A stretch of DNA of 64,000 nt, taken from positions 25,759-89,758 of the forward strand of contig CAYJTG010000003.1 in the NCBI GenBank assembly GCA_964373255.1, read 5' to 3'. Positions 1,237 to 56,199 of the stretch are shown one piece after another. Both the position numbers and the translations under genes were made by a program. Position 1 is the stretch's first letter. Each line of letters starts with the position of its first letter. A model generated the notes under the pieces. That model saw only the letters and a program-made list of their open reading frames with translations. It searched no databases and was not told the DNA's origin. This DNA is from an uncultured archaeon. GTDB taxonomy: Archaea > Aenigmatarchaeota > Aenigmatarchaeia > GW2011-AR5.

Positions 1237-1512
1237 TTACACAAGGCTTACAATTCCCTTGTACATGAAAAACAGGAAAAGAATAGTTGATGCTGTGCCT
1301 CCTAGATTTATGCCAAAAAATATTACGATACCTGCAAAAATATCGGCTGCCCCGTAGATTTTCGCGGTTATATCCCCAACAAGGCTCATAAGGCCTTTGA
1401 TAAACATTATGACCAGTATAATTATCGCAAGTGGCGGCTGGAAATTAAAAAGTATCATAATACCGACAAGAATATCTATGGCTCCTAGAAATTTTATGAA
1501 CATATTTATCAC
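1237..1512 (-). CDS. Small hydrophobic membrane protein with three predicted TM helices, function unknown.
   Basis: The 91-aa ORF is almost entirely hydrophobic. The ORF track starts it on a GTG; an in-frame ATG follows at about 1503. Confidence 0.4.
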   Translation of the reverse strand: MINMFIKFLGAIDILVGIMILFNFQPPLAIIILVIMFIKGLMSLVGDITAKIYGAADIFAGIVIFFGINLGGTASTILFLFFMYKGIVSLV

Positions 1513-1524
1513 TACGCCTCTCTA

Positions 1525-1721
1525 GGCACTGTCAACTTAACGGCTGTTGAAACAAACTGACGCACTAAAGTGCGTCTATCTGCTTTGGCAACAGCCTTTT
1601 CTGGGTGGTTAGCAATGGCTAACCACCCTTATAGCTAAACAAGAAAAGAATCAGGTATTATATTTCTTGTTTGCTATAATATCCAGATTATTTACTTGCT
1701 TCATAATAAGTTGACAGTGCC
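1525..1721. mobile_element. MITE-like non-autonomous element, copy 1 (about 197 bp). Flanked by 12-bp terminal inverted repeats GGCACTGTCAAC / GTTGACAGTGCC. Internal perfect hairpins.
   Basis: TIRs at 1525-1536 and 1710-1721. Positions 1537-1636 are about 95% identical to 56073-56168. Flanking direct repeat CTCTCTA (1518-1524 and 1724-1730). Internal hairpins GACGCAC-taaa-GTGCGTC and GGTGGTTAGC-aatg-GCTAACCACC. Confidence 0.55.
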
Positions 1722-49541: not shown

Positions 49542-49600
49542 ATTTGCATATGTTTGAGAAAAATGTTTAAATACCGATTATTTAGATAGGATTCCATATT

Positions 49601-49700
49601 CGTATGATGATGGTCGACGTGAGAGGCATTATCTGTCGATAATGCCTCTAGCTGACATATACGTCAACTGACGTATATGTCTACGTCGACCATCATACTT
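49601..49700. repeat. Structured palindromic element: an outer inverted repeat enclosing two perfect 12-bp hairpins with 4-nt loops.
   Basis: Outer arms CGTATGATGATGGTCGACGTG (49601-49621) and TACGTCGACCATCATACT (49683-49700). Hairpin 1 AGAGGCATTATC-tgtc-GATAATGCCTCT (49622-49649). Hairpin 2 GACATATACGTC-aact-GACGTATATGTC (49654-49681). Confidence 0.6.
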
Positions 49701-49716
49701 TAATGGAATTCCATCA

Positions 49717-53384: not shown

Positions 53385-53475
53385 AGTATCTCCGAAAGTG
53401 AGGTATACGCCTCTTGGCGTATACCTCGGTAGAGGATTACTGCCAACAGGCAGTAATCCAACTTTCGGAGATACT
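53385..53475. repeat. Structured palindromic element with the same architecture as 49601-49700: a perfect 15-bp outer stem enclosing two perfect 11-12-bp hairpins with 4-nt loops.
   Basis: Outer arms AGTATCTCCGAAAGT (53385-53399) and ACTTTCGGAGATACT (53461-53475). Hairpin A GAGGTATACGCC-tctt-GGCGTATACCTC (53400-53427). Hairpin B GGATTACTGCC-aaca-GGCAGTAATCC (53434-53459). Lies between the convergent secD and nac genes. Confidence 0.6.
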
Positions 53476-53826: not shown

Positions 53827-53996
53827 TGTACCACCAATTTGCCTTGGCATTGTCAACTTAAGGAGCACATAGTGGAATCGAAGATTCCACTTGTGCAGGT
53901 GAAGCTTTGCTTCACCATGCATTAGCCGTTGCTAATGCTCCAGAAAGGGGTGTTATCATTTGCCTTTAATTATTTTCATTCCCTAAATTTAAAGGT

Positions 53997-55184: not shown

Positions 55185-55509
55185 AATGAAATCCTGAAAA
55201 ATGTAATTATAGCATGGTTTTATAGATGTGATAAAACTCTTATAGTGAATCAATTCTATGTTCTGCCAGGATTGCATCAGCATGCAAAGGGAATGCAAAC
55301 AGCTTGTATGAGTTGAAACGACTATTTCTGGCTTTTCATGTAGATATAATGAGCTTTCATGCTGTTTCTTCATAGAAACCGTCAGAAAAATTTCAGCTTA
55401 CTAGTTACAACGAGGAAATAATATTCTGTTTGCCTTCTTGTATTGCTATAAAAACGTTATTTTGCAATGATTCCTATGAAGTAAGTCAGGCTTACTTTAT
55501 TTTTGGAGT

Positions 55510-55695
55510 GTGATAACGATGGGAGACGCATTGGTTGTAAAAAGCAAGGTTCGTGCATGGGCAAAGAAGAAGAAAATGAATCTTGGTGGCGACGCCGTTG
55601 ACGCGCTAAACAAGGAAATTGTAAGGCTTGTTGACCGCGCATCGGAGCGTGCAAAGGCTAATAGAAGGTCGACGATAAAGGGCAGAGACGTTTAA
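55510..55695 (+). CDS. Small histone-fold-like DNA-binding protein, apparently truncated (alpha1-L1-alpha2-L2, no alpha3).
   Basis: 'GDAVDALNKEIVRLVDRASERAKANRRSTIKGRDV' parallels archaeal histone alpha2-L2 '...ASEAIKLARHAGRKTIKAEDI'. 61 aa. Likely start at the Met of MGDAL (about 55519). Confidence 0.45.
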   Translation: MITMGDALVVKSKVRAWAKKKKMNLGGDAVDALNKEIVRLVDRASERAKANRRSTIKGRDV

Positions 55696-55955: not shown

Positions 55956-56060
55956 GCGCTACCACTTTCCGTTCGACTGTAGACATGTCGTGGTCTGCAG
56001 TATTTAAAATTTTAGTTAGCGCAATTGCTAAATCGTAAAACATAAAATGCGTGTAAGATT

Positions 56061-56180
56061 GGCACTGTCACCTTAACGGCTGTTGAAACAAACTGACGCA
56101 CTAAAGTGCGTCTATCTGCTTTGACAACAGCCCTTTCTGGGTGGTTAGCAATGGCTAACCACCCTTAAGTTGACAGTGCC
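56061..56180. mobile_element. MITE-like element, copy 2 (about 120 bp). Same TIRs and core as 1525-1721 but without the ~77-bp internal segment.
   Basis: TIRs GGCACTGTCACC (56061-56072) and GTTGACAGTGCC (56169-56180). Flanking direct repeat TAAGATT / AAAGATT. Confidence 0.55.
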
Positions 56181-56199
56181 TGAAAGATTGAAGAAAATG

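Follow-up and report, generated by a model that had tools for sequence, protein, structure and literature searches.

The window, by which is meant the whole stretch of 64,000 nucleotides that was analysed, carries archaeal replication and repair genes that include those for RadB, a family-B DNA polymerase (PolB), Cdc6/Orc1, CDC48 and NAC. The nearest named relatives of its RadB and TctA proteins belonged to metagenome bins of Candidatus Aenigmarchaeota/Aenigmatarchaeota, at identities of 78-79% and 59% at best, respectively, and four sequencing runs (ERR4904390-92, ERR3478686) had Logan k=31 assemblies in which the sequence of the window was also present. Three of its intergenic regions hold copies of a short, hairpin-rich repeat, designated family A. 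Copy 1 (1525-1721) sits between the stop codon of radB and the start of a gene for a membrane protein of 88-91 aa on the same strand; copy 2 (56061-56180) has its right end 19 nt past the stop codon of PolB; and copy 3 (53846-53957) occupies the spacer between divergent NAC and TctA-like genes. With the radB stop codon at 1728-1730 on the minus strand, copy 1 lies just downstream of radB, where an earlier, sequence-only reading of this DNA had placed it.

Copies and fold of family A

Copy 1 is a long form of 197 bp, bounded by perfect terminal inverted repeats of 15 bp, GGCACTGTCAACTTA, at 1525-1539 and 1707-1721. The sequence-only reading had described perfect repeats of 12 bp, and these are indeed present (GGCACTGTCAAC at 1525-1536, with its reverse complement at 1710-1721), although the perfect stretch is in fact 15 bp long. 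It had also taken the 197-bp segment to be non-coding, and this too was borne out, as copy 1 was found to contain no ORF of note, the sole candidate being a reading frame of 17 codons. That frame was considered as the N-terminus of a transposase and rejected: the region is a hairpin, and unlike the N-termini of IS6 transposases. Between the terminal repeats of copy 1, a composite hairpin, P2, is predicted at 1542-1596, with arms GGCTGTTG at 1542-1549 and CAACAGCC at 1589-1596, which enclose a second hairpin, P2a (GACGCAC-TAAA-GTGCGTC at 1559-1576). It is followed by hairpin P3 at 1603-1628, whose 11-bp stem is perfect and whose loop is 4 nt long (GGGTGGTTAGC AATG GCTAACCACCC).

Copy 2 is a short form of 120 bp (56061-56180) and is complete, with repeats at both ends (GGCACTGTCACCTTAA / TTAAGTTGACAGTGCC) that match at 15 of 16 positions with one mismatch, the right one including GTTGACAGTGCC at 56169-56180. 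Its hairpins P2 and P3 lie at 56078-56132 and 56139-56164. Positions 1525-1631 of copy 1 correspond to 56061-56167 of copy 2 at 97% identity (104/107), the two copies being 54 kb apart. The recurrence itself had been recognised previously, at about 95% identity and at 56073-56168, figures that are replaced by those given here; the accompanying statement that only the first ~100 bp recur was mistaken, since copy 2 is complete and has its own right repeat. Of the three positions at which copy 1 differs from copy 2, none shows compensation, and at one of them a pair of the terminal stem is disrupted.

Alignment of the two copies showed that copy 1 equals copy 2 plus an extra hairpin module. This module (1632-1706) is AT-rich, 75-77 bp in length and absent from copy 2; it lies between P3 and the right repeat with TA on each side, includes the 17-codon frame, and forms a hairpin of its own (1632-1648 / 1660-1676). 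A nested, TA-duplicating MITE was considered for the module but was not supported, its ends matching at only 7 of 12 positions. Because of this poor match, and because the junction of repeat and module recurs elsewhere in the assemblies (see below), the module is taken to mark a long-form subfamily.

The sequence-only reading reported two copies, and to these must be added copy 3, which is degenerate and partial, and is inverted relative to the other two. Its left end, GGCATTGTCAACTTAAGG at 53846, matches the repeat at 17 of 18 positions and is followed by a 58-bp insert with two hairpins, and then by a segment (53922-53958) with 81% identity to the P3-junction-P2 segment. No right inverted repeat could be recognised in copy 3. 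Its P3 differs from that of copy 2 at three stem positions, each of which is compensated on the opposite arm. The family is thus represented by three dispersed copies within 64 kb, of 112-197 bp and without a transposase ORF, which is in keeping with the size and copy pattern of a MITE.

Copies 1 and 2 folded as a three-way junction (Y shape) with perfect stems, comprising a terminal stem of 15-16 bp, P3 with its 11-bp stem and 4-nt loop, and the composite hairpin P2/P2a. The predicted energy for copy 1 was -84.5 kcal/mol (z = -10.6), and for copy 2 it was -64.5 kcal/mol on the plus strand and -71.7 kcal/mol on the minus strand, which folds better because of extra G-U pairs. Relative to shuffled sequences, the folds of the two copies gave z-scores of -10 to -12.4, so that the perfect internal hairpins noted earlier are well founded.

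Flanking duplications, empty sites and further copies

Direct repeats of 9 bp directly abut all three copies, matching at 8/9, 8/9 and 9/9 positions for copies 1, 2 and 3, respectively. Those of copy 1 are GCCTCTCTA at 1516-1524, which adjoins the tip of the terminal repeat, and GTCTCTCTA at 1722-1730; those of copy 2 are TGTAAGATT at 56052-56060 and TGAAAGATT at 56181-56189; and copy 3 has ATTTGCCTT at both 53837-53845 and 53958-53966. For random intervals of 100-200 bp in the window, the probability of a match of at least 8/9 was 2.3e-4, and of 9/9 it was 1.4e-5. A flanking direct repeat, CTCTCTA, had been seen at copy 1 from the start, and is real, but its length was underestimated, as it forms part of the 9-bp repeat that abuts both ends. 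Duplications of 8 or 10 bp were tried and rejected, 9 bp alone being in register. A blind scan for pairs of inverted repeats of at least 10 bp, spaced 50-400 bp apart and flanked by direct repeats of 7-11 bp, returned only copies 1 and 2 from the window, and one element from a locus of a relative; at duplication lengths of 7, 8, 10 and 11 bp it returned nothing in the window.

The insertion target of copy 1 reads TAGAGAGRC, and its TAG is the stop codon of radB, which falls within the right duplication. The insertion split a tight junction between radB and the small membrane-protein gene. The location of copy 1 had been called the promoter region of the small gene, which is correct as to its position on that side, but the label is only loosely right, since the stop codon of radB lies inside the right duplicated target, and a promoter region as such is not supported for a site that separates two closely spaced genes. 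It is better described as a split operon-like junction. An insertion has here gone into a stop codon and parted a tight gene pair, and neither gene was destroyed.

A related species of Aenigmarchaeota (loci L030-L032) has the same gene order, NAC-TctA-58aa-65aa-PolB, as the window. In the relative, the spacer between the 65aa gene and PolB is 111 nt long, and could be aligned over its full length with the spacer of the window after removal of copy 2 and one duplication (115 nt). The NAC-TctA spacer measured 41 nt in the relative, as against 170-171 nt in the window, where it holds copy 3. At radB, the next downstream gene of the relative is 25 nt away, and gene orientation differs locally. Family A sequence was absent from all loci fetched from relatives. 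A comparison of empty sites had been suggested as a check on mobility, and at the sites of copies 2 and 3 the relative proved to be uninterrupted, the comparison being one between species and not between strains.

Additional copies were indicated by the points at which assemblies break. In a k=31 graph, a contig is expected to enter a repeat as far as its last unique 31-mer, and contigs from four k=31 assemblies terminate inside the elements. At copy 1, three samples (ERR4904391, ERR4904392, ERR3478686) each supply a contig that runs out after 31 nt of the right, long-form arm and another that does so after 28 nt of the left arm. At copy 2, a contig of ERR4904392 covers 29 nt of the right arm before it ends, and a further contig begins inside copy 3. 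In the left arm of copy 2, a contig stops at element position 41, exactly as predicted by a private base at position 11. The breaks at 28, 29 and 31 nt are not explained by the three copies of the window, and therefore at least one more copy per arm type must exist in the samples; likewise, since three assemblies break 31 nt into the module arm, the junction of repeat and module must also occur at another locus. The extra copies presumably lie in the same genome as the window. The elements explain the fragmentation of this organism's k=31 assemblies at these points.

The sequence-only reading had proposed a search for further copies, and both the third copy within the window and the assembly breaks, which imply others outside it, answer to that proposal. 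The picture it had sketched as adverse to a mobile element (only two copies, no difference in presence or absence, and no matching type of autonomous element) was not the one encountered. Chance palindromes, or binding sites of a host regulator that were duplicated locally and are immobile, might be suspected from the fact that just two intact copies are fully readable, both of them by replication or repair genes (radB and polB). This explanation is scarcely credible in the face of an identity of 104/107 across 54 kb, of flanking duplications at all copies together with empty sites in the relative, and of breaks, in independent assemblies, for which additional copies are needed.

Affinity of the terminal repeats to IS6 elements

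The ends of family A were compared with public genome, metagenome and viral contigs, using the degenerate pattern GGCACTGTCANCTTAWBRKBDRKYR. Most of the 16 matches were chance matches of 16-20 nt, the exceptions being two IS6 ends, in L005 and L018, and a pair of small palindromic elements of bacteria that share these ends, L008 and L013. No archaeal copy of the family A end, and no viral one, was found among these contigs, which do not include the source genome. The terminal 18-21 nt of family A are identical to the ends of bacterial insertion sequences of the IS6 family (DDE_Tnp_IS240). L005 comes from a member of the Vicinamibacterales and encodes a frameshifted transposase, which, when reconstructed, matched Pfam PF13610 DDE_Tnp_IS240 at 8.8e-32; GGCACTGTCAACTTAACG is found 63 nt past its C-terminus, and an inverted partner of this end, GGCACTGTCAAGTTGACG, is 2.7 kb away. 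In L018, a metagenome contig, GGCACTGTCAACTTAACGGCGG lies ~50 nt beyond a C-terminus homologous to that of the L005 transposase. Intact relatives of this transposase, of 233 aa, are abundant, and the ends of their element are GGCACTATCAAGTTGAGG / GGCGTTGTCAAGTTGACGG. The search with the L005 transposase returned close homologues only, of which the named ones were all bacterial (Vicinamibacterales), and no archaeal partner transposase was among them. The copies of the intact bacterial element had hybrid flanks and therefore gave no duplication length for its clade.

The published consensus for IS6/IS26 ends is GGTTCTGTTGCAAA, in which GG and G7 are nearly invariant, while archaeal ends are longer and without G10 (PMC6807381); a conserved GG tip and a cTGTt motif have also been described for the family (PMC7986276). 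The family A end, GGCACTGTC, fits this consensus, sharing with IS6/IS26 elements and their MITEs the GG start, the G at position 7 and the CTGT motif (cTGTt), and, like archaeal IS6 ends, its repeat is longer than 14 bp and has no G10. The nearest ends by sequence are nevertheless bacterial (Vicinamibacterales and soil metagenome) and not archaeal. MITEs derived from IS6 are already on record, namely MITEBth2 and MITEHarch3 of ISfinder (PMC6807381), and family A is similarly short and non-coding; however, at 120-197 bp it is smaller than these two listed examples (227 and 336 bp), and its interior is filled not by what remains of IS ends but by perfect hairpin modules. A further departure concerns the target duplication, which in the IS6 family is normally 8 bp, with one archaeal entry, ISH15, at 9 (Table 5, PMC6807381), whereas it is 9 bp at 3/3 copies of family A, and the 8-bp register gave no match.

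No transposase gene with family A ends was found in ~76 kb, consisting of the window and flanks of ~12 kb, and tblastn searches with the IS26 transposase and the IS6 transposase of L005 found none in the window or in this organism's loci. IS6 elements move by cointegrate formation, so that simple insertion of a 120-bp element would need a further resolution step. Duplications of 9 bp along with GGC ends are found in the IS5/IS903 group and in IS1. An IS6-type (DDE_Tnp_IS240) partner appears the most likely, because the repeat carries the hallmarks of IS6 and is identical to IS6 ends over 18-21 nt, but judged from these sequences the chances that the partner transposase is of this type may be put at about even, given the 9-bp duplication and the usual cointegrate route of IS6 elements.

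The segment at 1525-1721 is, very likely, a copy of a small MITE family in the chromosome of a member of the Aenigmarchaeota (DPANN), for which a partner of IS6 type is the leading candidate. This is the interpretation first offered from the sequence alone, and it is supported by the terminal inverted repeats, the 9-bp duplications, the lack of coding sequence, the multiple copies, the empty sites and the IS6-like ends. The unit would be a non-coding DNA of 120-197 bp, bounded by a repeat of ~16 bp, GGCACTGTCAACTTAA, and filled with perfect hairpin modules. A DDE transposase encoded elsewhere would bind both repeats and mobilise the element in trans, inserting it where the two target strands are cut 9 bp apart, and repair of this offset would yield the 9-bp direct repeats. 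On this scheme copy 1 would have hit the stop codon of radB, the duplication then regenerating the stop for that gene, and the downstream 88-aa membrane-protein gene would have kept its original 5' flank, now ~206 bp further away, with whatever effect on transcription this may presumably have had. Copy 2 would have inserted 19 nt after the PolB stop codon, and copy 3 into the divergent NAC/TctA spacer. Two observations run contrary to parts of this model: copy 3 has perfect 9-bp repeats but no right inverted repeat, which does not suit a transposase acting on two ends, and P3 has stayed paired although copy 3 differs from copy 2 in it by three double substitutions, which does not suit a purely passive passenger.

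Archaeal MITEs include SM1-SM4 of Sulfolobus. Like archaeal MITEs in general, family A is short, non-coding, intergenic, bounded by terminal inverted repeats, flanked by duplications and present in several copies; it differs in being another sequence family, in a host of the phylum Aenigmarchaeota, and was seen in no other organism in the comparisons made. MITEs are abundant in some DPANN genomes according to a census of archaeal MITEs (PMC11602168). As MITEs, including IS6-derived ones and those of DPANN archaea, have already been described, family A is a commonplace type of element, here in a host that has been little studied. Less usual are the presence of IS6 ends of bacterial type in an archaeal host, a duplication of an atypical 9 bp, and a hairpin architecture that is shared with other repeats. 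Family A provides a record of DNA transposition, either active or recent, in an uncultured and streamlined DPANN archaeon, and the occurrence on an archaeal MITE of IS6-type ends that were otherwise seen here on bacterial elements hints at the spread of transposons across domains.

Hairpin architecture and related repeats

The stability of the folds raises the alternative that the copies are structured ncRNA genes or 3'-UTR elements, in which the Y-shaped fold would be functional in a minus-strand transcript that follows radB and polB, for instance by stabilising the mRNA or by terminating transcription, and the copies would be paralogues. The extreme z-scores (-10 to -12.4), the better folding of the minus strand through G-U pairs (-71.7 versus -64.5 kcal/mol in copy 2), and the placement of copies 1 and 2 in the same orientation as the gene immediately upstream, 0-19 nt past its stop codon, would all suit such a role. 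So would the compensatory changes in P3 between copies 2 and 3, and the shared junction topology of two other repeats, families B and C (see below), of which family B shows nine compensatory changes and no broken pair. Yet an RNA gene would not be expected to carry 9-bp duplications at 3/3 copies, to be missing from syntenic sites in a related species, or to end in sequences identical to those of IS6 transposons, and where copies 1 and 2 differ, at three positions, there is no compensation, one of the changes breaking a pair of the terminal stem. Rfam gave no match to the whole window at the gathering threshold, and around the copies only chance-level matches at E<=10 or E<=1 (<=17 bits, compared with gathering scores of 50-100); no tRNA or tmRNA was detected in the window. 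The stems are made up of Watson-Crick pairs throughout, a pattern that points to palindromic DNA more than to helices of RNA. An origin as structured RNA is consequently improbable, but a structured transcript could possibly be a secondary, co-opted role of a MITE.

The same hairpins might instead be the feature recognised by an HUH enzyme, in place of the terminal inverted repeats, which would make family A the derivative of a single-stranded DNA transposon of IS200/IS605 type, or a REPIN-like element. Perfect interior hairpins occur with great regularity (11 in the window against 1.65 expected), their stems are maintained by compensatory change, and copy 3 manages without a right inverted repeat. 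Elements of the IS200/IS605 type, however, have subterminal hairpins only and are free of terminal inverted repeats and target duplications, whereas family A has both terminal inverted repeats and duplications of a fixed 9 bp, as well as ends that match a DDE family. The scanned part of the neighbourhood showed neither a Y1/HUH transposase gene nor one for TnpB, and this explanation is very improbable. A DDE-mobilised MITE remains the preferred reading.

Modular, hairpin-rich repeats that lie just after stop codons, and have long and short forms differing by modules, are also known from bacteria as REP/BIME, Correia, BOX and ERIC sequences. Compared by description only, family A is set apart from these in that most of them have no duplication of fixed length or use TA, and the Y-shaped three-way junction is not their usual form. 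In shape, and in shape only, it is like the T-shaped inverted terminal repeat of AAV, whose long outer palindrome has two short and perfect hairpins inside it. The AAV repeat terminates a linear, single-stranded genome and serves there as the origin of replication, unlike family A, which consists of dispersed chromosomal insertions with duplications, is accompanied by no Rep gene, and has no sequence relation to it.

The 11 perfect hairpins of the window have stems of at least 9 bp, and seven of them have stems of 11-12 bp with 4-nt loops. They belong to family A and to the two further repeats, family B at 49585-49714 (core 49607-49696) and family C at 53385-53475, the latter with a second copy ~3.4 kb beyond the end of the window. 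All three families, although unrelated in sequence, have a common layout, in which an outer stem is followed, after 0 nt, by a hairpin, then after 4-6 nt by a second hairpin, and after 1 nt by the return of the outer stem. In the window, flanking duplications were weak for family B (7/9) and family C (5 bp). Neither the P3 hairpin nor family B or C had a match among the viral contigs scanned.

The core of family B recurs at a non-syntenic position in the related species (L030, 2358-2447). Between the two species all 39 of its 39 pairs were kept, 30 unchanged and nine through a double change, with no single changes and no broken pairs, while six of the 12 unpaired bases differ. This strict upkeep of Watson-Crick pairing suggests a constraint on the hairpins themselves, whether as DNA or as RNA. 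It may be, although this is rather doubtful, that the part under selection is the Y-shaped hairpin core and not the transposon ends, and that such cores make up a new class of structured DNA or RNA module in DPANN archaea. If so, the cores might ride in, or recruit, different MITE shells, and might serve as single-strand hairpin substrates or as RNA structures at 3' ends; the Y-shaped architecture, if functional, would then define a new structured module. In L030, the family B core lies inside a different outer inverted repeat, GCTCTGTAGAAA, which is flanked by a 9-bp direct repeat, CAATCAAAT.

Two further families of palindromic repeat

A palindromic repeat of ~130 bp, distinct from family A (the MITE under study) and here called family B, was located at 49585-49714 of the window (core 49607-49696), and its fold is Y-shaped, as is that of family A (z = -12). 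The 90-nt core was found again in a related Aenigmarchaeota species (L030, element 2338-2468, core 2358-2447), with unrelated genes adjoining. Comparison of the two cores revealed that 39/39 pairs were kept, nine of them by way of compensatory double changes, with no one-sided changes or broken pairs. The outer inverted repeat surrounding the relative's core differs from that in the window, and the relative's element is flanked by a 9-bp repeat, CAATCAAAT. One contig of the Logan k=31 metagenome assemblies is 48,021 nt long and starts at window position 1691; counted from there, this length would place its far end near 49711 and therefore at the family B element.

The 91-bp family C element (53385-53475) begins 3 nt past the stop codon of SecD/F and consists of a perfect 15-bp terminal stem enclosing two perfect hairpins (z = -14.5). 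There was no clear target duplication, only 5 bp being found. A second copy lies ~3.4 kb past the right end of the window, and its last 27 nt form the start of a Logan contig (L027, 1-27). A solitary perfect hairpin with a 12-bp stem and a TAAA loop was also present at 2415-2442, within the 53-nt spacer separating the divergent radB and RNase H-like genes, and its module size is that of the hairpins within families A to C.

Bacterial elements sharing the ends of family A

Small palindromic elements of 95-117 bp, bounded by ACTGTCAACTT(A/G)A, were found in a Paracoccaceae genome (L008, 5748-5844) and in a GC-rich metagenome contig (L013, 1761-1877), and these ends are shared with the archaeal family A element. 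It is likely that both are MITEs from bacteria and belong to the same clade of IS6, the family of insertion sequences whose ends match those of family A; neither showed an evident flanking duplication. In a Vicinamibacterales locus (L005, 1578-4262), one IS6-family element, whose transposase is frameshifted, has its two inverted ends 2.7 kb apart, and the stretch from the left end to the start of the transposase holds an unrelated 599-aa ORF.

Gene rearrangements and other features of the window

Two small genes adjoining family A copies are inverted compared to the related species, with synteny otherwise kept. One, beside copy 1, specifies an 88-91-aa membrane protein (window 1237-1512; L020, 6704-6979) with 35% identity to its counterpart, and here the window carries an extra class-II aaRS-like gene (179-1216). 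The other, near copy 2, specifies a 58-aa protein (window 55519-55695; L030, 8261-8437) with 79% identity, and the spacer there (55185-55518) holds ~260 bp of extra sequence.

Another relative (L033, 4021-7974) has a family-B DNA polymerase of 1317 aa that contains an intein with a LAGLIDADG domain, whereas the window PolB (~909 aa) is intein-free. A block of co-directional genes at ~20000-44000 has a G+C of 0.33-0.38, compared to 0.41-0.47 elsewhere, and may be a surface-glycan or sugar-modification island, because the corresponding region of the related species carries epimerase and glycosyltransferase genes.
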